A DNA stretch of 64,000 bases from Thermoplasmatota archaeon (GTDB lineage: Archaea > Thermoplasmatota > E2 > JACPAO01 > JAHFTW01), in the NCBI GenBank assembly GCA_041601615.1, contig JBFIHX010000002.1, positions 128,001-192,000 of the forward strand. Direction: 5' to 3'. Positions 4,966 through 36,525 of this stretch are shown here, piece after piece. Position 1 is the stretch's first letter, and every line of letters starts with the position of its first letter. The position numbers were made by a program, and so were the translations under genes. The notes below the pieces were generated by a model. That model worked only from the letters and a program-made list of their open reading frames with translations, did not search any database and was not told where the DNA came from.

Positions 4966-5909
4966 GCGGCCACCTCCCGGGGGCGGGGTGTTGCGCCTCC
5001 GGTCAATTCCAGGAACACCGATTCCAAACTGGCCCCTGCCGATTCCACCGAGCGGACCCGGGCGCCGGCCCCCACGAGCGCCGCTACAGCGTCCGGCACC
5101 CGTTCGTCGTCGAGGCTGAAGCTTGCGATGTTGGCGTCCAATTTGATCGCGGTGGCGCCGGAGCTTTGGAGTGCAGCGTGGTGCTTTTGGGTTGGGTTGT
5201 CGATGTGTACTCGGACTTGAGCCCCGGCCCCTGCGCGCTTTCGCAGTTGGTCCACGGGGGCGACGATTTTCAGTTCGCCTTTGTCGAGGATTGCCACGCG
5301 CTTGCAGGTGGTTTCGACTTCGTGTAGTTGGTGGCTGTTGAGGAAGACCGCGGTGCCGTCGCGAGCGAGTCCTTTGATCATTTCGCGCAATTCGTAGGCA
5401 CCCTTGGGGTCGAGGCCGTTGGTGGGCTCGTCAAAGAAAATCAGTTTGGGCCTGTGCAGGATAGCTTGGCCGATGCAGATGCGTTGCTTCATGCCGTGGC
5501 TGTAGCCCTTCACACGGCTGTCGGCGCGGTCGCTCATACCGACGAGTCCGAGCACTTCTTCGATGCGGGCGCTGCGGTCTTCTCGCTCCATGCCGGCCAA
5601 TCGGCCGTAGAAGTCGAGGTGTTGGCGGCCGCTGAGGTTGCTGTAGAAGTCGTATTGGTCAGGCACGAGCCCGATGTGGCGGGCAGTCCCGGGAGGATCT
5701 GCAAGTGCATCCTGGCCAAGGAGGCGGACGGTGCCGGCGTCGGGGCGCACGAAGCCCGTGACGCATTTGGTGAAGGTGGTTTTCCCCGCGCCATTGGGGC
5801 CCAAAAATCCGAACACTTCTCCCGCCTCTACGGTGATGTCCACGCCCTTGAGGGCTTCGATATTCCCGTATCGTTTGCGCAGGCCATGGACTTCGAGGAC
5901 GTTCGCCAC
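4962..5909 (-). CDS. ABC transporter ATP-binding protein
   Basis: GPNGAGKTT Walker A, YSHGMKQR signature, FFDEPT Walker B. Start trimmed to GTG 5909 because the longer ORF overlaps tiaS. Confidence 0.9.
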   Translation of the reverse strand: MANVLEVHGLRKRYGNIEALKGVDITVEAGEVFGFLGPNGAGKTTFTKCVTGFVRPDAGTVRLLGQDALADPPGTARHIGLVPDQYDFYSNLSGRQHLDFYGRLAGMEREDRSARIEEVLGLVGMSDRADSRVKGYSHGMKQRICIGQAILHRPKLIFFDEPTNGLDPKGAYELREMIKGLARDGTAVFLNSHQLHEVETTCKRVAILDKGELKIVAPVDQLRKRAGAGAQVRVHIDNPTQKHHAALQSSGATAIKLDANIASFSLDDERVPDAVAALVGAGARVRSVESAGASLESVFLELTGGATPRPREVAA

Positions 5910-27181: not shown

Positions 27182-28141
27182 GTGGGTGTCAACCTTCGTG
27201 ATCTGTTTCCTCCGTACGACGTAGCTGAGAGCTGGTACGACGGGAAGACGATCGCCATCGACGCGCACAATGTCAGCTTCCGGTACCTGACGACCATGCG
27301 GGGCCGCGACGGAGACATGCTCAAAAACGACGACGGGCGCGTCACGGGCCACATGATTGGGTTCATGAATTTGGTTCGCAACTTGCGCTCGCGTGGCGCC
27401 GAACCGGTGCTTGTCTGGGACGGCCCAGTGCACCCACGCAAGCGCGCCACCGTAGACGCCCGCCGTGCCAAGCGCGACGAAACGCTCGCTCGTGCAGAGG
27501 CGGCACAGGCTGCCGGCGACATGCGGGAGTACGCTCGACTCATGCGCGGGACCGTGTACATCACCCCGCAAATGATCAGCGACTGTACGCAACTCATGGA
27601 ATCCGTGGGTGTTGCGGTGGTGACGGCGGACCACGACGGGGAGCGATTTGCCGCCGCTATGTGCTTGGCTGGGCACGCGGACGCTGTTGCCACGGAGGAC
27701 TTTGATGCCCTCGTTGCGGGTGCTCCTGAAGTGCTTCGCAAGGCGGGCGGCGCGGAGCCTTGGCTTCTGAAACTGTCGGACTTGGAGCGCAACAAGATGA
27801 CCCAGGCGCAGCTTCGCCAAGTCGCTGTTCTGTGTGGCACCGATTGGCACCCCGGCGTCAAGGGGTTCGGCGCCAAGACCGCTGTGCGGGCCCTCAAGGA
27901 GTACCCAGATCTGGCCGTGCTGTTTGACGAAGTGGAAGCAGGCCGCAAGGATACCCGCTACCACACCATGGTGGCCAAGTCAGACATGGACGGCGACACA
28001 TTCCGTGCACTGGACCATTTCATCGCCGACTTGCCCGTGCCGGAGGCCCCCAAGCGCGCCAAGCCCTGCCCCGATATGGCGACCGCCGCGGCCGAGGATC
28101 TTGGATTGCAGTCGGCGCGTGTGCTTGGCTGCTTTGTCTAG
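27182..28141 (+). CDS. Flap endonuclease-1 (XPG/FEN1) family nuclease, divergent
   Basis: GTG start gives MGVNLRDL; IAIDAHN, VWDG, DGE, TEDFDAL, GTDW, GVKGFGAKTA (H3TH); no clear C-terminal PIP box. Confidence 0.85.
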   Translation: MGVNLRDLFPPYDVAESWYDGKTIAIDAHNVSFRYLTTMRGRDGDMLKNDDGRVTGHMIGFMNLVRNLRSRGAEPVLVWDGPVHPRKRATVDARRAKRDETLARAEAAQAAGDMREYARLMRGTVYITPQMISDCTQLMESVGVAVVTADHDGERFAAAMCLAGHADAVATEDFDALVAGAPEVLRKAGGAEPWLLKLSDLERNKMTQAQLRQVAVLCGTDWHPGVKGFGAKTAVRALKEYPDLAVLFDEVEAGRKDTRYHTMVAKSDMDGDTFRALDHFIADLPVPEAPKRAKPCPDMATAAAEDLGLQSARVLGCFV

Positions 28142-28268
28142 CGCGCGCCCATGTTCGTACATTGCCGGTCGTGAAATTCAGACTAAGCAAGGCTGGGCGA
28201 GGCGCCGCGATTGCAGCATTCCCTTCGAGAGAATGACGAATTTCGCGTGCGGGGCACCTGAGCTTTCA

Positions 28269-28290
28269 ACCCCTTCATTTCCTGTGGAAC
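28269..28290 (-). promoter_or_regulatory. ORB-like origin recognition box 1
   Basis: Minus strand GTTCCACAGGAAATGAAGGGGT matches the archaeal ORB pattern (TTCCA..GAAA plus G-string). Confidence 0.75.
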
Positions 28291-28552
28291 CCAATGCCGT
28301 CGGCACGTTCCCAGGTTTTATTCGTTGTTTACAAAACAAAAAGAAAGCGAGGAACTGCGGGAAGTCCCTGTTTGAGGCAGTTCATCCCTTGCCCGCAGCC
28401 CGAATGCATCCCATCCGATCGAGAGGCCAACCGAATGTCCCCCGAGGGGGTCCAAATTCCAACAAGCGCGTGGGGTATACAGATTCATTGGTAACTAATG
28501 CGAGGCTTTCAGATGGGACCAGTGGAAGCTCTGTTACCAGTTTCTCTGTAGG

Positions 28553-28574
28553 GTTCCACCGGAAGTCATGGGGT
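28553..28574 (+). promoter_or_regulatory. ORB-like box 2
   Basis: GTTCCACCGGAAGTCATGGGGT; 18/22 identical to box 1, inverted. Confidence 0.7.
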
Positions 28575-28683
28575 CACGCAGGGGTGGGCCTTAGCACCCA
28601 TGCCGAATGCCGGCCAAAGGCGTCGCCTGGCGTGGCGGGCAGCCCCGCCTCAGGCTGCGAGGCCCGCGAATTGTGCGTCGCGC

Positions 28684-28764
28684 CACCACCACCACCACCA
28701 CCACCACCACCACCACCACCACCACCACCACCACCACCACCACCACCACCACCACCACCACCAC
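28684..28764. repeat. Perfect trinucleotide microsatellite (CAC)27
   Basis: 81 bp of uninterrupted CAC repeats read directly. Confidence 0.95.
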
Positions 28765-28882
28765 AAAGCAGGGAACCAAGCCACAGCGGCTATGGCCCGA
28801 GGACCCAAGGGCGTCAGGAAGCCCCTCCGACGCCACAACCCAAGGGGCGACAGCCATCAAGGGGTCACCCCATCCTGCAGCC

Positions 28883-30529
28883 GTGGCCCGCGCCGTCGTC
28901 AACGCCCGCATCTACCCCATGGACTCCCCGGAGCGCACGGAAACTGCTCTGCTCGAAGAGCATGGCCGCATCGTGCTCGTAGGTAGCGACGAGGAAGTCC
29001 GCGCCGCCGCCAAGCGCATCGGAGCCCCCGTGGAAGACCTGGAGGGCTGCGTAGTGCTGCCTGGCTTCGTAGACGCACACATGCACTTTCTGCACGTCGG
29101 CGTCAAACAAACCCGGCCTGACCTCTCCGGCGCCTCCAGCAAAACCGAGGCGCTGGAGCGAGTGCGGTCCTGGTTGGCAGCAAACCCCGGCAGCGGCCCC
29201 GTGACTGCGGAAGGCTGGGACGAAGCCGAATGGCACGGTGACACACCGCCGACCCTTGCCGAACTCGACGAACTAGCACCCGACCGCCCCCTCGTGCTCC
29301 GGCGCATCTGCGGACACAAAGCAGTCGCCAATACCCACGCCTTGTCCGTAGTGCAGGCACGCTGGAGTGACCCCGAAAAGGTGCACCCCGACGGGGTCCT
29401 GTTGGAGGAACCGAGCCTGTTTCTCAACGAAGTGCTCCCGGAAGATCCCGAGTTGCTTGACAAGGCGCTGCGCGTTGCCTGCGCCGAAGCGCATCGGCTC
29501 GGAGTCACCACCATTGGGGATTTCGAGCAGGCTCCGTTGCGTGCAGCACTTATTCGAGGCGTCGAAAGCGGTGCTCTTTCTGTGCGCGTCAACTGCAGCA
29601 TCTACCCGCAGCAACTGGACGCAGCCCTTGCCGAGGGGTTCCGGACAGGTCGCGTGCCCGGTACTGCTGGCGCGCTCGAACCTGCTGACAGTTCCATTGT
29701 GAAGCCGGAACGCGCCGCTGGATCCACCACAGCCCAGAGCCAAGCCCAAGAAGACCCAAGCTCCCTTCCCGGCATCCTCCTTCGCGACGGTGGCATGAAG
29801 GTGTTTCTGGACGGCAGCATCGGCGGACACACCGCGCTCCTGCTGGAACCCTACACGGACAAACCTGACACCCGGGGCACCAAGATCTGGACCGATGCGC
29901 AACTAGACGACCTCTTCTGGCGCGGTCACGAAGCAGGCATCCAGCTCATGGTTCACGTCATCGGGGATGGCGCCGTAGAACAAGGGCTTCAGGCCTACGA
30001 GCGCCTTTCCGCCCGCGTCGGGGTTGCAGCAATCAAATCGATGCGCCACCGATTCGAGCACTACGAAATCGTACACGACGACCAGGTGCAACGCACTGCG
30101 GTGCTGGGACTTGTGCCATGTAGCCAACCCAACTTTGTCGGCGTTTGGAGCAGCAAAGGTGGGCTGTACGAAGAACGCCTAGGCCACCGCTACGGCGCCA
30201 ACAATCGATTCCAGACCTTCAAGGCCGCCGGGATCCGACTCAGCTTTGGCAGCGACGGGATGCCCTTTGGCCCCCTAGTCGGACTCGACGCAGCAATCCA
30301 CCATCCAGACCCTGCTGAACGCATGACCATTGAGGAAGCGATTTGGCACTACACCTCAGAAGCCGCCTGGAGTTTGCACCGCGAGGACGAAGTAGGCACC
30401 TTACAGCCAGGGCGACTTGCAGATTGGATCGTTTTGGACCGAAAGGACTTGCACGAGGCGCCCAAAAAGTGGGTGGTCCAGGAGACAGTCCTAGGCGGGA
30501 CCACTTGTTTTCAAGCGCCCATTTCATGA
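28883..30529 (+). CDS. Amidohydrolase-3 (YtcJ-like) metal-dependent hydrolase
   Basis: NARIY, PGFVDAHMH, RICGH...N, KVFLDGSIGGHTA, HVIGD, HRFEH, GSD, GTLQPGRLAD. Start trimmed to GTG 28883. Confidence 0.9.
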   Translation: MARAVVNARIYPMDSPERTETALLEEHGRIVLVGSDEEVRAAAKRIGAPVEDLEGCVVLPGFVDAHMHFLHVGVKQTRPDLSGASSKTEALERVRSWLAANPGSGPVTAEGWDEAEWHGDTPPTLAELDELAPDRPLVLRRICGHKAVANTHALSVVQARWSDPEKVHPDGVLLEEPSLFLNEVLPEDPELLDKALRVACAEAHRLGVTTIGDFEQAPLRAALIRGVESGALSVRVNCSIYPQQLDAALAEGFRTGRVPGTAGALEPADSSIVKPERAAGSTTAQSQAQEDPSSLPGILLRDGGMKVFLDGSIGGHTALLLEPYTDKPDTRGTKIWTDAQLDDLFWRGHEAGIQLMVHVIGDGAVEQGLQAYERLSARVGVAAIKSMRHRFEHYEIVHDDQVQRTAVLGLVPCSQPNFVGVWSSKGGLYEERLGHRYGANNRFQTFKAAGIRLSFGSDGMPFGPLVGLDAAIHHPDPAERMTIEEAIWHYTSEAAWSLHREDEVGTLQPGRLADWIVLDRKDLHEAPKKWVVQETVLGGTTCFQAPIS

Positions 30530-30615
30530 GTTTGGGCCTTTACGTGGTGATGAAAACAATGTCGTGCCCCTGAACCCGTTGTTTGCAGATATCCATCAGC
30601 ATGACTGCCTAGGGG

Positions 30616-30632
30616 TTGATTTCGCGTGGAAC
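30616..30632 (-). promoter_or_regulatory. Mini-ORB-like box (no G-string)
   Basis: Minus strand GTTCCACGCGAAATCAA. Confidence 0.5.
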
Positions 30633-30667
30633 TGGGCCAACAGGAGTGGGGGTGGATGAAAGGGGGG

Positions 30668-30689
30668 ACCCTAGCATTGCTTATGGAAC
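30668..30689 (-). promoter_or_regulatory. ORB-like box 3
   Basis: Minus strand GTTCCATAAGCAATGCTAGGGT; 16/22 identical to box 1. Confidence 0.6.
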
Positions 30690-30833
30690 TGCAAAAAGGG
30701 TAAGGATGACCAAGAACGAGATGAATACTGGATGAAATAGACCCTGGTGCGTCAAGCACGACCATATCATAAACCCTCGGGAAAAATTTTCGCCAAAAGA
30801 AGCCCGTTTTTGCCGGTCCCTTAGAGAAAATCC

Positions 30834-30855
30834 GTTCCAGGAGCAATCAAGGGGT
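30834..30855 (+). promoter_or_regulatory. ORB-like box 4
   Basis: GTTCCAGGAGCAATCAAGGGGT; 17/22 identical to box 1; inverted partner of box 3 around A/T tracts. Confidence 0.65.
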
Positions 30856-31351
30856 CCCCCCTCTCCCGCCAGGGTTCACTCTCGTAGGCCTCCGAATGGA
30901 CTGCAGGAAAGAACGGCGACCGAAGCTCCACTTCCCGGCATGAAGTTCTTTGACAGGCCTGGGGGTTTCGTAGCACTTCCAAATATGCCCGCAACAGCAC
31001 AAGAAATTTTGTGAAAATTAAGGCAAGCTGGACGAGCTCGTGGATGACTGAACTGAATCCCCGATGCCTGAGCTAGGTTATGGATGCCAGGGCTGAATCA
31101 TTCCTGACTAAACCGACTCGTGATTTTCTCTGCCCTGACGAGCATGGCGCCCCAGGCCACACCATGCCTTCGCAATCACAAGCTCCGCTCCGCATTCTTC
31201 AGGGTTTTGCAAATTCCATCTGTTCAAGCAAACAGGCTCCATTCGGGTAGCCGCCAGGCGTTCTAGGGTCATCAACGGCGCGCTTGGGTGCGCCGCGACT
31301 CAGGGGTAACCAACTCGCTCTCGAAAGAGAACGGCTTTCTCCCGGAAGGCA

Positions 31352-33088
31352 ATGGTACGCTTGGCCATGGCGATCACACGCAGTGCCACCGCACTCCTTC
31401 CTGCCACTGATTTGGTGGCCATCCGCACCCGCCTCGCCGAGCAGTACGGCAGCGAGCTCTACGAGGCAGACGATGACCGGCGCATCCTGTGCATCCACGT
31501 TCCACGCGCCGAGCCAGACCCTGTCAACGACGTGGAGGCCGCCGTAGAGTACCTCGACCCCACCGACGTAGGTGCGGCAACCCAAGTGCTCCTCATCGGC
31601 ACCCAGCGCATGGCCCAAGTGTACGCCGAACCCCTGAAACAACTCGTCCAAGAGCGCGTTCGCACAGACCAACGCATCGCGGACGAATGGCGCCAACGCC
31701 TCCCCGGGACGCTTTCGCACGAATTTTTCAAAGACCCCGCTGACCCACGCCGCCGCTCACGCCTGGTCGTCCGATTGCCCGTCGGCTCCATGGCCGAAGT
31801 CGAAGACAGTTTGCTGGAACCCCTTGCCGACGAATTGGGGCCGCAAGTGGACACGCCCCGCGTCAAGAGCCTCGCCGCAGTCTACCTCATCTCCGCCCGC
31901 GACCACGTGCGCCTCGCGCCAGATGTGTTCATCCAGGAACTCTTGCGAAAATGGCGCGACGAGGATCGCCGCATGCGCGCCCAAGCCGCCCGCGAACTCG
32001 AAAAGCAAGCAGAACGGGAGCGCAAGGAAATCGAACGCCGCCGCCTGATGGCTGACTTGGACCGTACCCTCGGCCGAAGCGAACGCGTCGCCCGCGCCCC
32101 CCTGCGGCGCCACCAGACCCCTTCGAATCGCGTTGACTCGTTGCTCGGACACGGCCGCCACTTGGATCTCACCCCAGGTACCCGACTCAGCGCTCGTACT
32201 CTCGCGGAGCAAAAGCAACCCTCGACGTCCAATGAACCTCCTGGCGCCACCCAGGACCACGACTCAGGGCACACGGGAGCCCGCGAACACCGCTTTGGCA
32301 CCAACTACCAATATCTAGATGCCGTGTTGGGGCGAGGTGCTCCGACAGGACAGGATTCCGCCACCCCGGGTCACTTCGGCGCGACCCCGCCGTCGCCACG
32401 AGCGCAAGAACCTGCACTAGGGACGAAAGAACCTGCGCCGCCTCTAGCACGGACACCCAGTTCCGGTCCACGCTCGCAAGTCGCCGGAACCCCTCGGTCG
32501 GCCCCAGAACCTAGCTACCCTCGAGCTGCCTTGGCATCCACGGACGACGTGATCCAGACTCGTGGCCCGAGCAGGGGCCCAAGCAGTGCTTCAAGGAGCA
32601 CCGCGCACCCTTCTCGCGCCACTCCGGCTGCCACACCGGCATCCTCTCAGGCAGCTTCCTCGTCCGGCCCCGCCGCAGAAACGGCCGTGGTGGAACACAA
32701 CCACCGCATGGAGCGCATCAAAAACCGCGTCGACGGCCTTGGCAAGCGCGCCGTCGAACTCAACGACCGACCCGGCGGGCGCCTCGGCCGCATCGCAGAG
32801 CACCTCATGGACTGTGGCTTTGACGTATTGGTTCGCCCCGAGACCCCGGGAGCCCGCATCGACCTCGCTGCAGAACGACCCGAGGGCAATCCACAACGGA
32901 TTGTGCTTCGCCTCGAGGACAAACTCACCGTGGCGGCCGCCAACAAGGGACTAGAGTTGGCACGAACACTGGACGTGGACCAAGTGGTCGTTGTTGCAGA
33001 GCACGCCGATCCCGAAGCGGAGCGACGCCTTCTGGCCACCAAGGTCCAATGGCTGACTCCCACGGACTTGGCAAAGGCACGTTTGTGA
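31352..33088 (+). CDS. Hypothetical protein: N-terminal globular domain, coiled coil, disordered linker, C-terminal Mrr/restriction-endonuclease-like domain
   Basis: Long ORF with host-like codon usage; C-terminal IAEHLMDCGFDV...RIDLAAER...RIVLRL...VVVVAEHADPEA resembles a PD-(D/E)xK fold lacking ExK. Confidence 0.75.
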   Translation: MVRLAMAITRSATALLPATDLVAIRTRLAEQYGSELYEADDDRRILCIHVPRAEPDPVNDVEAAVEYLDPTDVGAATQVLLIGTQRMAQVYAEPLKQLVQERVRTDQRIADEWRQRLPGTLSHEFFKDPADPRRRSRLVVRLPVGSMAEVEDSLLEPLADELGPQVDTPRVKSLAAVYLISARDHVRLAPDVFIQELLRKWRDEDRRMRAQAARELEKQAERERKEIERRRLMADLDRTLGRSERVARAPLRRHQTPSNRVDSLLGHGRHLDLTPGTRLSARTLAEQKQPSTSNEPPGATQDHDSGHTGAREHRFGTNYQYLDAVLGRGAPTGQDSATPGHFGATPPSPRAQEPALGTKEPAPPLARTPSSGPRSQVAGTPRSAPEPSYPRAALASTDDVIQTRGPSRGPSSASRSTAHPSRATPAATPASSQAASSSGPAAETAVVEHNHRMERIKNRVDGLGKRAVELNDRPGGRLGRIAEHLMDCGFDVLVRPETPGARIDLAAERPEGNPQRIVLRLEDKLTVAAANKGLELARTLDVDQVVVVAEHADPEAERRLLATKVQWLTPTDLAKARL

Positions 33089-33449: not shown

Positions 33450-34718
33450 ATGCACACCGTCAGCACCGATTGTCAAGCCCTAGATGCACTCTTGGACGGC
33501 GGTCTCGAATCCGACGCCATCACCCTGGTGTTCGGAGAGGGTGGCAGCGGCAAAACCAACCTCGCACTGCAATGCGCTCGCGTAGCCATCGCCGGCGGCC
33601 AGCGCGTCGCCTACGTGGACACGGAAGGCGTGAGCGAAAAACGGCTTGCACAAGTGTTCAACGCCCTGCCCGACGAGGGACGCGAAGGCGCCATCGAACG
33701 GTTGCTGTTCTACAAGCCCTTTTCCATCGACGAACAGGAGAAGATGGTCAAGAAAACCGCCCTCTTGAAGGACGTCGGTCTGATTGTTGTGGACTCCGTC
33801 AACATGCACTACCGGCTCCACATCGATGCACCCGGAGGCGAAAAGGAAGCCGGCCAAAGCCTGCTTGCCCAACTGCATCACTTGACCATGCACGCTCGGC
33901 GCCACCACATCCCCGTGCTCATCACAGGCCAAGTGTACGGAGGCGAAGACGCGACGCAACCGTTTGCCCGCCGCACCATGGAACACCTCGTCAAAGCGCT
34001 CGTTCGCTTCGAGAAACGACCCGATGGCACCCGCCGCGCCACCGTCCTCAAACATCGCAGCATTGAGGAGGGCAGACAGGTCCGGTTTGTCATTGGGCCC
34101 AACGGACTTGAAGACCTAGCCCAGGCACGAACCTCTGGTTCCGTAGGCGCAGGCGCGGGCAGGGGCGTGGGCGCGGACAAACCCGCTTTGGGAACATCCA
34201 ATGTGGCACGGCCCTCGGCGACGAATGCCGCCGGAACACCGCAGAGGCTGAGCCCAGAAGAGGCGCGTGCTCGCTTCGAGCGCTTGCGACAAGCCCAGGC
34301 CGAAGCAGGGGACGAATCAGGGTCGGAAATGAGCGCGGCCTCCATGGCCGATCCGGTGCGACACTCGACCATCGGAATCGAATCGAAGAACGAACTCGAA
34401 TCGGCCACCGAGGAAGAACCAAGCCTCGATGCCGCAATCGAACCGGGAATGCAACGCCACCCTGCTCAATCAGACCCAATTCCAATTCCCGCAGACACAC
34501 CGCCGTCCGAAACAGCCACGAACCCCATAGCTTCGGGCCAGGCGGCAGACGCGCCCTCGGCACCCCTCCGCGCCCACGACGACGCAACCGATGAATCGGA
34601 CGCCCCCGAGGGCCCGGCGACCGAACTCATGACCGAAACCGAGCGCAACGAGGCCGAATCCTTGCCTGGATTCACCTCCGCCAACAAAATTCCGCGCAGC
34701 GGGGAACAACCCTCCTGA
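33450..34718 (+). CDS. radB: DNA repair and recombination protein RadB with a long acidic tail
   Basis: LDALLDGG, GEGGSGKTN, YVDTEG, LIVVDS, KHRS basic patch; about 190 aa low-complexity C-terminus. Confidence 0.9.
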   Translation: MHTVSTDCQALDALLDGGLESDAITLVFGEGGSGKTNLALQCARVAIAGGQRVAYVDTEGVSEKRLAQVFNALPDEGREGAIERLLFYKPFSIDEQEKMVKKTALLKDVGLIVVDSVNMHYRLHIDAPGGEKEAGQSLLAQLHHLTMHARRHHIPVLITGQVYGGEDATQPFARRTMEHLVKALVRFEKRPDGTRRATVLKHRSIEEGRQVRFVIGPNGLEDLAQARTSGSVGAGAGRGVGADKPALGTSNVARPSATNAAGTPQRLSPEEARARFERLRQAQAEAGDESGSEMSAASMADPVRHSTIGIESKNELESATEEEPSLDAAIEPGMQRHPAQSDPIPIPADTPPSETATNPIASGQAADAPSAPLRAHDDATDESDAPEGPATELMTETERNEAESLPGFTSANKIPRSGEQPS

Positions 34719-34792: not shown

Positions 34793-35695
34793 ATGCGCAC
34801 GTTGTCCCGACTCGGCGTACCGATTCTGTTGTTGCTTGCAGCCTGCTTGGTCCAAGCCTCAGCCCAGCCCATCGCCCCAGACGGACCCCCGGTCGCGCCC
34901 GACGGCCTCGTCCCCGAGGACCCACTGATCGACCCAGAAGCCCTCTCCGAATTCAAGGAACTAGGCCCCGTCCTGGACCTCGTACGTGGTGAAGAAGGCG
35001 GCGCCGCACCACCCGAAGAGGACACCGCCGCGCCGTCCGAGCCCGGATTCGCCGACCGTGTACGCGCTGCCATGCAAGACAAACTGCTCACCGCAGGCCT
35101 CGCAGGCGTGGTTGCGGCCGCGCTGGGTGCGGCTGGATTCGGCCTCGTGACGCGCTACGTCAGCCCCAAAGAGGCCCTCAAAAATCCGCAGCGAGCCATG
35201 CTGTACGGCTTCATCCGCGCCACCCCCGGCGCGCACCTGAAGCAACTCTCGGACGAATTCGTCATGAAAACCAGCAGCATCCTATGGCACATCCGCAAGC
35301 TCGAAGCGGCAGAACTGGTGCACAGCGACCGCGTCAACGGCTACCGAGTCTTCTACCCCGTCGACGGCGGCATCGAAGCCAAGCGCGTCAGTCGCGCCAT
35401 CACCGCCCTGCAAAACGACAACGCCAAAGCAATCTTCGAAACCATCCAACGGGACACCGGCTGCACCACGCGCGCCATTGCCGAACGCCTCAGCTTGCAC
35501 GGCGGCACCGCCCGCTGGCACCTGAAAAAACTGCGCGACCACGGCCTCCTAGAGGAACTGGTACGCGACGACGGCTCCCGCTTCTACAACACGCCGCTGG
35601 GCGACCGCGCCATCGAGGCCATGATGGGCCGCCCCGTCGAACCCGCCAGGGTCCTCCCCCGGCGCGCCCCCGTTCCCCTTCCCGCTTCCGAGTGA
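34793..35695 (+). CDS. Membrane-anchored double winged-helix regulator
   Basis: Signal peptide, acidic linker, TM helix, then two wHTH repeats (PGAHLKQL...WHIRKLE; TRAIAERL...RWHLKKL). Confidence 0.82.
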   Translation: MRTLSRLGVPILLLLAACLVQASAQPIAPDGPPVAPDGLVPEDPLIDPEALSEFKELGPVLDLVRGEEGGAAPPEEDTAAPSEPGFADRVRAAMQDKLLTAGLAGVVAAALGAAGFGLVTRYVSPKEALKNPQRAMLYGFIRATPGAHLKQLSDEFVMKTSSILWHIRKLEAAELVHSDRVNGYRVFYPVDGGIEAKRVSRAITALQNDNAKAIFETIQRDTGCTTRAIAERLSLHGGTARWHLKKLRDHGLLEELVRDDGSRFYNTPLGDRAIEAMMGRPVEPARVLPRRAPVPLPASE

Positions 35696-35700
35696 TCCAC

Positions 35701-36525
35701 ATGTACAGAACCGCCACCATCCTCCTGCTGCTCGCCCTCATTCCCGTTGCGCTTGCGCAGGCGCCCGTGGACCCCAACGATCCACTGGGCCTCGGCGAGG
35801 ACCCCGAACCCGCAGAGCAGGCCCCTGACCTGGCACCCGGGCAATCGGGCGACGACCCCGCCGGCGGCGTCACCGACCCGGTCCAAGGAAACGACGGAGG
35901 CATCGATTGGGGACGTGGCATCGTCTGGGGCGTTGGCATCGGCGGCGTCGGACTCGCAGCACTCGCCGGCATTGCCTACTACCTCGGCATCGGGGGATTG
36001 CGGCACGTGGACAAACACAACGTCCTCGAACACCCGATGCGCAAGAGCCTGCTCGAAGTGGTGGAATCCGAACCCGGCGTTCACTTGCGCGAACTCGCAA
36101 CACGCCACGGCACCGCAGTCACCAACACCCAATGGCATCTGCGCAAACTAGAGATGGCCGGGCTCGTCAAGACGCAAAAAGTCCAGGGCCGACGCCTCTA
36201 CTACCCCACCGCAGGCGGCGCCCAAGCCAAGCAAGTCGCCGTCCAGAATGCTGCAGTGCAAAACCCCAACGCCCGCCGCATCCTCGACTACCTCCAGACG
36301 CGCCCCGGCACGAACCAACGCAGCCTCGCAGAAGCCCTGGAGATGAACCCGGGCACCGTGCGCTGGCACTTGCGCAAAATGGAAGCCGCTGGCATGGTCA
36401 AGTGCATCCCCGACGGCACCCAAAGCTGCTATTTCCCGTTGGACACCACCGGACCAGGGACCTGGAGCGACGACTCCGACAGCAAGAAGGAAGCCATCCT
36501 CAGCGTCGACGGACCACGCAACTGA
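35701..36525 (+). CDS. Membrane-anchored double winged-helix regulator, tandem paralogue
   Basis: ATG 35701 MYRTATILLLLALIPVALAQA; Gly-rich TM helix; PGVHLREL...WHLRKLE; PGTNQRSL...RWHLRKME. Confidence 0.82.
   Translation: MYRTATILLLLALIPVALAQAPVDPNDPLGLGEDPEPAEQAPDLAPGQSGDDPAGGVTDPVQGNDGGIDWGRGIVWGVGIGGVGLAALAGIAYYLGIGGLRHVDKHNVLEHPMRKSLLEVVESEPGVHLRELATRHGTAVTNTQWHLRKLEMAGLVKTQKVQGRRLYYPTAGGAQAKQVAVQNAAVQNPNARRILDYLQTRPGTNQRSLAEALEMNPGTVRWHLRKMEAAGMVKCIPDGTQSCYFPLDTTGPGTWSDDSDSKKEAILSVDGPRN

Follow-up and report, generated by a model that had tools for sequence, protein, structure and literature searches.

Organization of the locus

We analysed a 64-kb stretch of DNA from an uncultured marine Thermoplasmatota archaeon (G000:C2:128001-192000, that is, part of contig C2 of genome G000; hereafter the window), in which a cluster of boxes resembling archaeal origin recognition boxes (ORBs) marks what is probably a replication origin separated from its initiator gene. 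The cluster occupies 156-159 kb of the 351-kb contig. From left to right, the locus comprises a FEN1-like flap endonuclease gene, a first intergenic gap (gap 1), an amidohydrolase gene, a second gap (gap 2), a conserved gene hereafter called UNK, and radB (Table 1). Both gaps contain an inverted pair of boxes. The assembly comprises 2.79 Mb in 30 contigs (62% G+C, 93% complete), and it was compared with up to 31 related genomes; below, f1 denotes the Thermoplasmatota family to which this genome belongs, and g1, g2, and g4 denote genera.

Table 1. Features of the locus, in window coordinates
Feature	Position	Strand	Remarks
FEN1-like flap endonuclease	27185-28141 (start approximate)	+	PF00867, PF00752; left neighbour; syntenic in relatives
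ORB box 1	28269-28290	-	score 36.6; 44 nt 3′ of the RNA end, in the RNA's orientation
Oligo-T run, RNA 3′ end	28331-28349	-	from sequence and alignment
Structured non-coding RNA gene	28335-28505	-	about 170 nt; conserved; without Rfam family
Degenerate half-box	28519-28528	-	probably matches the position of the second full box of genus g4 (L042-L044)
ORB box 2	28553-28574	+	score 30.9; 47 nt 5′ of the RNA start, opposite to the RNA
(CCA)27 microsatellite	28684-28764	none	in the own-lineage extension of gap 1, outside the conserved module
Amidohydrolase	28883-30529	+	PF07969, E 1.9e-77; likely start GTG at 28883
Third gap-2 box, without G-string	30611-30632	-	four-box-matrix score 14.0
ORB box 3	30668-30689	-	left arm of origin-like core; C-run on the outer side
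Gap-2 spacer, candidate duplex-unwinding element	30690-30833	none	144 nt, 55% A+T
ORB box 4	30834-30855	+	right arm of origin-like core; followed by C-run
UNK	31352-33088	+	conserved; predicted folded N-domain, disordered linker, and PD-(D/E)xK-fold C-domain (residues 474-578)
radB	33450-34718	+	TIGR02237, 180 bits vs cut-off 172; syntenic

The first-pass annotation of this DNA had placed five boxes in the two gaps: two inverted pairs and one copy without the G-string. All five are present in the sequence, and an independent repeat finder recovers both pairs, with 24-nt arms (83% complementary, 258 nt between them) in gap 1 and 32-nt arms (78% complementary, 144 nt between them) in gap 2. The box without the G-string is kept in genome G002 (L008, position 410, minus strand). 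The locus is also present in four marine metagenome DNA runs from one study, one of which is possibly the source sample; the contigs of these runs reproduce both gap sequences with 0 differences. In the 64-kb window, ARAGORN finds no tRNA or tmRNA gene, and Rfam gives no match at the gathering threshold.

Identity and rarity of the boxes

How specific are the boxes to this locus? When the whole 2.79-Mb genome was scanned with a matrix built from the four full boxes, as the first-pass annotation had proposed, seven sites scored at least 28.6 and the next best reached 21.0; four of the seven lie here, making this the densest ORB cluster in the genome. A family matrix, retrained on 61 distinct boxes taken by coordinate from this genome and its relatives, returns nine sites at 20 or above (four at the locus), two sites at 16-18, and noise up to 14.8. 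As this genome's own boxes are included in the training set, the independent support comes from the three non-seed sites of the four-box scan and from the relatives. Across 31 genomes, a degenerate pattern yields 108 matches, as compared to 9 for its reversed control. In this census, (-,+) pairs of the pattern no more than 400 nt apart occur only at this locus (in G000, G001, G013, and G004) and beside orc1 in the outgroup genome G029.

The consensus of the 61 boxes agrees with the ORB oligonucleotides of Pyrococcus furiosus at about 15 of the first 17 positions, and it contains the “TTCC” and “GAA” motifs (PMC1904270; this and the other publications are cited here from excerpts). In that report, the P. 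furiosus oligonucleotides were bound by Cdc6 in gel shifts, and the two motifs were termed perfectly conserved. Because the consensus matches these Cdc6-bound ORBs, we accept the boxes as ORBs, as they had been classified on the first pass; the same box also stands upstream of orc1. Judged by this match, we consider them with high confidence to be genuine Orc1/Cdc6 origin recognition boxes, to which Orc1 would bind.

Boxes of this type also occur away from the locus. Two tandem ORBs lie upstream of mcm on contig C1 (G000:C1:63416-63479; L004 6417-6483), at a distance of 261-303 nt and with hef two genes off, and one or two tandem boxes precede mcm in 9 of the 15 family loci. A strong box on C9 (G000:C9:15993) is situated between a gene for a 132-aa unknown protein and the 3′ end of sfsA. 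In family f3, contig C72 of genome G020 (L123) carries four boxes (at 5861, 7493, 12082, and 12171), apart from both orc1 and UNK and neighboured by Pus10, an HflX-like GTPase, and unknown genes; this cluster may be the origin of family f3.

An inverted box pair encloses A+T-rich DNA upstream of UNK

The two arms of the gap-2 pair point their dyad ends inward and their G-strings outward, and they frame a spacer with an A+T fraction of 0.55, as compared to 0.37 in the whole window. This spacer falls within the top 1.1-1.3% of genome windows for A+T content, and it is the only 144-nt window in the 64 kb with at least 55% A+T.

The arrangement is conserved in the relatives, where a comparison of synteny had been suggested. 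An inverted (-,+) pair is present upstream of UNK in 17 of the 19 family genomes, this genome counted; as for the other two, the contig of G003 ends at this place, and G009 shows the + box only. The inner spacer measures 141-165 nt in 16 of the 17 genomes and 206 nt in G016, and its A+T content is 47-66%, as compared to 32-40% for the locus (13 loci measured). In addition, a run of C or G follows most of the gap-2 boxes in the family. The + box, on the other hand, stands anywhere from about 130 to about 870 nt before the UNK start. The internal geometry is thus fixed while the distance to UNK varies, and the module is therefore not tied to a promoter position. The canonical oriC layout, in which inverted ORBs surround an A+T-rich element, is present in gap 2 and absent from gap 1. 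With the duplex-unwinding element abbreviated to DUE, gap 2 is the only ORB(-)/DUE/ORB(+) module of the family and its best origin candidate, and we lean toward regarding it as an oriC core served in trans.

Several of the gap-2 spacers in the family contain direct repeats, which were not used for the origin claim. They are significant in 6 of 16 spacers (L042, L043, L046, L048, L050, and L051; no more than 5 of 200 shuffles have repeats as long), with unit lengths of 12-17 nt and periods of 21-46 nt, and they lie in the half of the spacer nearest to UNK, their sequence varying by genus. In the genus of this genome, the spacer has no significant direct repeats (91 of 200 shuffles have repeats as long). 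A partly palindromic block at about 31320-31345, just upstream of the UNK start codon, is shared by the three genomes of the genus, whereas the approximately 450 nt preceding it are not conserved there; this block is possibly an operator or a 5′-UTR element.

A structured RNA gene lies between the boxes of gap 1

Gap 1 had been described as free of genes and, like gap 2, as bracketing A/T tracts between its boxes. In gap 1, the space between the boxes is occupied by a structured RNA gene on the minus strand, and the A/T tract is the oligo-T run at the 3′ end of this RNA, which probably acts as an archaeal terminator. Taken over its full length, the gap-1 spacer is within the top 3-5% of genome windows for A+T content, a weak enrichment.

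The block between boxes 1 and 2 is near-identical in G001 and can be aligned to genus g4, in which protein identity is down to 55-65%. The consensus folds at -33.3 kcal/mol on the minus strand, with G-C/G-U alternations, as compared to -16.8 on the plus strand, and the stems of one hairpin differ wholly between genera. A covariance model, R1, built from five training sequences, finds exactly one copy in each of 10 of the 31 genomes, all of them from family f1. The five matches outside the training set all lie upstream of the amidohydrolase gene, or adjacent to a box on contigs compatible with this position. Among the ten RNA sequences, pairing extends to 95.1% of the cells, compensatory changes occur in 17 of 34 pairs, and none of 500 shuffles reaches the score, in an alignment that was fitted to the model and therefore favours the structure; in a control in which the partners were slid by 1-3 columns, pairing drops to 35-54%. 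A filter-free scan of four more loci places the top weak match upstream of the amidohydrolase gene, on the opposite strand (E 2e-4 to 0.24). The single-sequence fold, at -52.1 kcal/mol, is not better than chance when compared with shuffled sequences (z = +0.42). Fold energy alone thus lends no support, and the case for the RNA rests on covariation. Searches against Rfam leave the RNA unmatched, both in the window (E up to 10) and in the ten homologous loci (E up to 5). The covariation indicates that gap 1 holds a previously undescribed structured RNA family, with its gene bracketed by the boxes; structured single-stranded DNA in place of RNA is a formal alternative.

The boxes keep their places relative to this RNA. 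In 7 of the 10 RNA-bearing genomes, a box is located 43-60 nt beyond the RNA 3′ end, in the orientation of the RNA. The same seven genomes have a second box on the 5′ side, which lies 4 nt away and in the RNA's orientation in g4 (three genomes), and 47-48 nt away and in the opposite orientation in g1 and g2 (4 of 4 genomes). Genome G007 has no gap-1 boxes at a score of 12 or above. This placement indicates that the ORB-RNA-ORB unit is conserved and that the inverted arrangement is not. Gap 1 is a separate ORB-RNA-ORB module, distinct from gap 2.

Two other candidates in this region were rejected. A 66-aa open reading frame (ORF) at 28294-28494 was discarded on account of a 1-nt indel relative to G001 inside the conserved block. 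An apparent enrichment of a heptamer, taken one base off (two copies in gap 1, where 0.14 are expected, and none in gap 2), was also dropped; among 15 relatives, the gaps of 3 contain the same heptamer, with no more than one copy each.

orc1 is encoded elsewhere, probably after the break-up of an ancestral gene island

The genome has only two orc1 genes, on contigs C11 and C5, and none near the locus, in agreement with the first reading. No initiator gene therefore adjoins the candidate oriC. The C11 copy is a bona fide orc1 (NF001625, 568 bits vs cut-off 501), with a box 129 nt upstream of its ATG. Throughout the family (14 of 14 genomes), orc1 is preceded by a single + box that has the orientation of the gene and lies 150-208 nt ahead of the matched start. 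In these 14 genomes, orc1 has no partner box scoring at least 7 beside it, except for one weak site in G004, and the maximum A+T fraction in any 100-nt window at the family orc1 is 0.39-0.52. A better ORB cluster beside orc1, which the first-pass annotation had named as grounds for rejecting the locus, is thus not what these genomes have: in all 14, a single box stands there without any A+T-rich stretch. Another strong box in this genome (G000:C11:60771) is found where an ORF ends, 3.7 kb upstream of the box that precedes orc1.

The second orc1, on C5, belongs to a cluster orc1b-u244-PolB-like that is conserved in relatives (G000:C5:92213-98723, L006). This cluster consists of a divergent orc1, a gene for a 244-aa unknown protein, and a gene for a 988-aa PolB-like protein with weak NCBIfam matches. 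In this genome and in eight relatives, the C5 orc1 has neither boxes nor an A+T-rich gap. A weak inverted repeat found there (26 nt, 73% complementary) was set aside: the gap aligns only with that of same-genus G002 (71% over 326 nt of DNA).

Where were the paired boxes before? In the outgroup G029 (96% complete), an inverted pair and a third box surround an 81% A+T window directly upstream of orc1, and the inverted pair represents the only two pattern matches of that genome. In G027 (family f6), the order is DP2, box, orc1, X, DP1, box. In G023 (family f2), orc1-X-DP1-Y-UNK-RadB lie on one strand within 8 kb. In the present genome, C11 carries orc1 with X alone still beside it, DP1 is on C9, DP2 on C5, and UNK-radB on C2. 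From this synteny, we infer that an ancestral island (origin-orc1-DP1...UNK-radB) was broken up in this family. The observed arrangement would result if the island had been split between the origin pair and the orc1-proximal box: orc1 would have moved off with one promoter-proximal box, which now resembles an autoregulatory operator, and the paired module would have stayed beside UNK-radB. The sequence of steps given here is a proposal.

Neighbouring genes

The amidohydrolase gene lies between the two box clusters in all 14 assembled family loci, with protein identities of 45-77%, which marks it as an old resident and not an insertion. To the left, the FEN1-like protein scores 194 bits against TIGR03674, under the cut-off of 352.

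UNK is present in 24 of the 24 genomes of the order that were searched, and in none of 6 from other families of the class. Its sequence has no match in Pfam, NCBIfam, or the PDB, and eight UNK homologues have no Pfam domain and no informative name. It contains no Walker A motif and no AAA+ match. The structural model of UNK shows two confident domains joined by a disordered linker. The modelled C-domain resembles AF1548 (Z 12.3; rmsd 2.6, 99 residues aligned) and NucS (Z 11.1), with a Foldseek E value of 2e-4, and is predicted to have the fold of the PD-(D/E)xK nuclease superfamily. In the alignment, UNK has an invariant “AAER” and, on the strand that follows, no conserved (D/E)xK. When the N-domain is modelled by itself, its best match has a Z of 5.4, under the noise guide of the tool. 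UNK is tied to replication solely by its constant place beside the gap-2 module.

radB encodes 422 aa here, and its relatives match mainly residues 1-223, so that the protein of this genome is extended at its C-terminus by about 200 aa. At 34793-36525, two ORFs overlap in different frames; both encode HVO_0163-type and winged-helix helix-turn-helix domains, and both are syntenic 3′ of radB across the family.

A candidate origin served in trans

How might the two modules work? We propose that the Orc1 encoded on C11 binds both gap-2 arms in trans and loads MCM onto the spacer between them. Gap 1 would be a second, accessory Orc1-binding module around the RNA gene, without an unwinding element. 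It would most likely place the RNA under Orc1 control, add initiator occupancy beside the origin, or both, and its role would resemble that of the second ORB cluster of Thermococcales. On balance, we think it probable, from sequence comparison, that the gap-2 pair forms an oriC core to which an initiator encoded elsewhere would bind in trans, and that gap 1 serves as an accessory Orc1-bound module; replication would then fire from gap 2.

Several observations weigh against this proposal. Cumulative GC skew, another check put forward on the first pass, does not turn at 156-159 kb of C2; the curve peaks around 50-60 kb and reaches its lowest point around 210-220 kb. On C2, C11, C1, and C9, GC skew and Z-curves track the gene strand and mark no box site. 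The A+T enrichment of the gap-2 spacer is moderate, as 211 regions of the genome reach 55% A+T over 144 nt. The boxes at the orc1, mcm, and RNA promoters indicate that Orc1 also has regulatory sites, and the UNK-radB operon could be another such target. Because the assembly is incomplete and fragmented, another origin could be among the unassembled DNA. At UNK-radB in families f2 and f3, no box reaches a score of 11 with the f1-trained matrix, which is less sensitive there. Finally, all of the metagenome contigs end at the (CCA)n repeat at 28674-28773, so that the join across the repeat is without independent contig support; the gene order across it is backed by synteny in the relatives. The gap-1 extension that holds (CCA)27 is missing in G001, and the length of the repeat is without independent confirmation.

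Two earlier ideas about the relation between the gaps find no support. A single origin interrupted by the amidohydrolase gene is at odds with the presence of that gene in every assembled family locus, and a pair of equivalent half-origins is at odds with the different contents of the gaps: gap 2 frames A+T-rich DNA, while gap 1 frames an RNA gene with box orientations that are not conserved (inverted in g1 and g2, direct in g4). Much the same evidence bears on the possibility that the two gaps are ORB(-)...ORB(+) origins independent of each other and that both fire. Both gaps do have inverted boxes with their dyad ends inward, here and in g1 and g2 (4 of 4 genomes); but a conserved RNA gene fills the weakly A+T-enriched spacer of gap 1, the gap-1 boxes are direct repeats in all three g4 genomes, and in G007 none reaches a score of 12, so we regard two origins as very unlikely indeed. 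A small mobile element of the MITE (miniature inverted-repeat transposable element) type, with the boxes as its terminal inverted repeats, would account for imperfect inverted repeats around a short A+T-richer segment. Since the position is syntenic across the whole family, the other genomic copies are single, unpaired boxes at the orc1 and mcm promoters, and no transposase was found, we give this idea almost no credence.

More serious is the possibility that the boxes constitute an Orc1 regulon only, in which an Orc1 paralogue would use all of them as operators for orc1, mcm, the RNA, and UNK-radB, and the origin would lie elsewhere or not be defined by ORBs. The single box at a fixed distance and orientation upstream of orc1 (14/14), the one or two tandem boxes upstream of mcm (9/15), and the boxes at fixed distances around the RNA gene (7/10) all suit such a regulon. 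Moreover, all of the box-linked neighbours are DNA-metabolism genes, GC skew does not mark the locus, and Sulfolobus Orc1-2 is a known transcription regulator that is not an initiator (PMC9738581). Gap 2 does not fit this picture, however: its pair keeps both its spacing (141-165 nt in 16/17) and its A+T filling while the distance to UNK varies about 7-fold, unlike a promoter-anchored operator. It is also the only such module per genome, and every genome needs an origin; in the outgroup, furthermore, this module takes the form of a classical origin next to orc1. We consider a regulon alone unlikely, albeit worth keeping in mind. A module that binds Orc1 without firing, as a dormant or relic origin, with replication starting from another site or by recombination, would explain the lack of a skew signal, and dormant origins are documented in haloarchaea (PMC4595724). 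Against it, boxes, spacing, and A+T content are kept across at least 10 genera with proteins at 45-65% identity; this conservation argues for ongoing selection, and we judge dormancy very unlikely.

The candidate origin served in trans can also be extended to a two-module initiation control region in which the RNA takes part, with one ORB pair around the unwinding element and one around the RNA gene. Orc1 would then gate transcription of the RNA; alternatively, this transcription (through an R-loop) or the RNA itself would act back on Orc1 or on MCM loading. UNK would be a lineage-specific origin factor in the usual place of orc1. We put this forward as a speculative and rather doubtful elaboration.

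If gap 2 is the origin core, the locus has consequences for the annotation of archaeal origins. A current origin-prediction pipeline gives first priority to intergenic regions adjacent to an initiator gene (preprint 10.64898/2026.08.15.744077). In this marine family, such a rule would choose the single-box orc1 promoter, and the only ORB(-)/DUE/ORB(+) module would be overlooked. The locus would also document, by synteny, how an origin and its initiator gene separate while the initiator retains an operator. In addition, a new structured RNA family bracketed by initiator boxes provides, for archaea, a concrete connection of an RNA to the replication initiator that can be tested.

Comparison with known systems

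No account of origins in this lineage was found in the open-access texts, which do not include the preprint's supplementary table of predicted origins. In other archaea, ORB(-)/DUE/ORB(+) is described as the canonical origin pattern (preprint 10.64898/2026.08.15.744077), and in Sulfolobus oriC1, the ORB3-DUE-ORB2 core is required in vivo (PMC12141716). Gap 2 resembles origins of the oriC1 type in having two inverted ORBs of defined polarity around an A+T-rich stretch. It differs from them in that no initiator gene is adjacent, orc1 being on another contig, and in the composition of the spacer, which reaches only 55% A+T (the genome has 62% G+C); here, moreover, the origin is a candidate from sequence.

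The Thermococcales provide a parallel for the two clusters. There, two Cdc6-bound ORB clusters, oriC and dp1, flank cdc6 in the oriC region (Matsunaga et al. 2007, PMC1904270). Both systems have two ORB clusters 2-3 kb apart that are split by a gene, the cores of the boxes are nearly equal, and radB and the PolD genes belong to the ancestral neighbourhood. In contrast to the Thermococcales, however, the intervening gene is an amidohydrolase and not cdc6, and the second cluster brackets an RNA gene and is not within dp1. A secondary ORB cluster near an origin is also known from Haloarcula hispanica oriC2, where a downstream cluster has a proposed regulatory role (review PMC4010727). Gap 1 would be comparable in lying near a candidate origin, although oriC2 is adjacent to cdc6 and involves no RNA gene, as far as the review describes it.

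With respect to the regulatory boxes, the closest likeness is to Sulfolobus Orc1-2 (PMC9738581): the boxes at the orc1, mcm, and RNA-gene promoters suggest that Orc1 has a regulator role here as well. Unlike the Sulfolobus case, the motif here is the canonical long ORB, and either of the two Orc1 paralogues could be the binder.

With respect to the separation of origin and initiator, Hyperthermus butylicus oriC serves as a model origin without an adjacent initiator gene (preprint 10.64898/2026.08.15.744077), and it shares with gap 2 an ORB(-)/DUE/ORB(+) arrangement with no initiator gene alongside. The present archaeon belongs to a different phylum. In its family, synteny allows the uncoupling to be followed back to the breaking apart of orc1-DP1-UNK-radB, and orc1 keeps an operator-like box.

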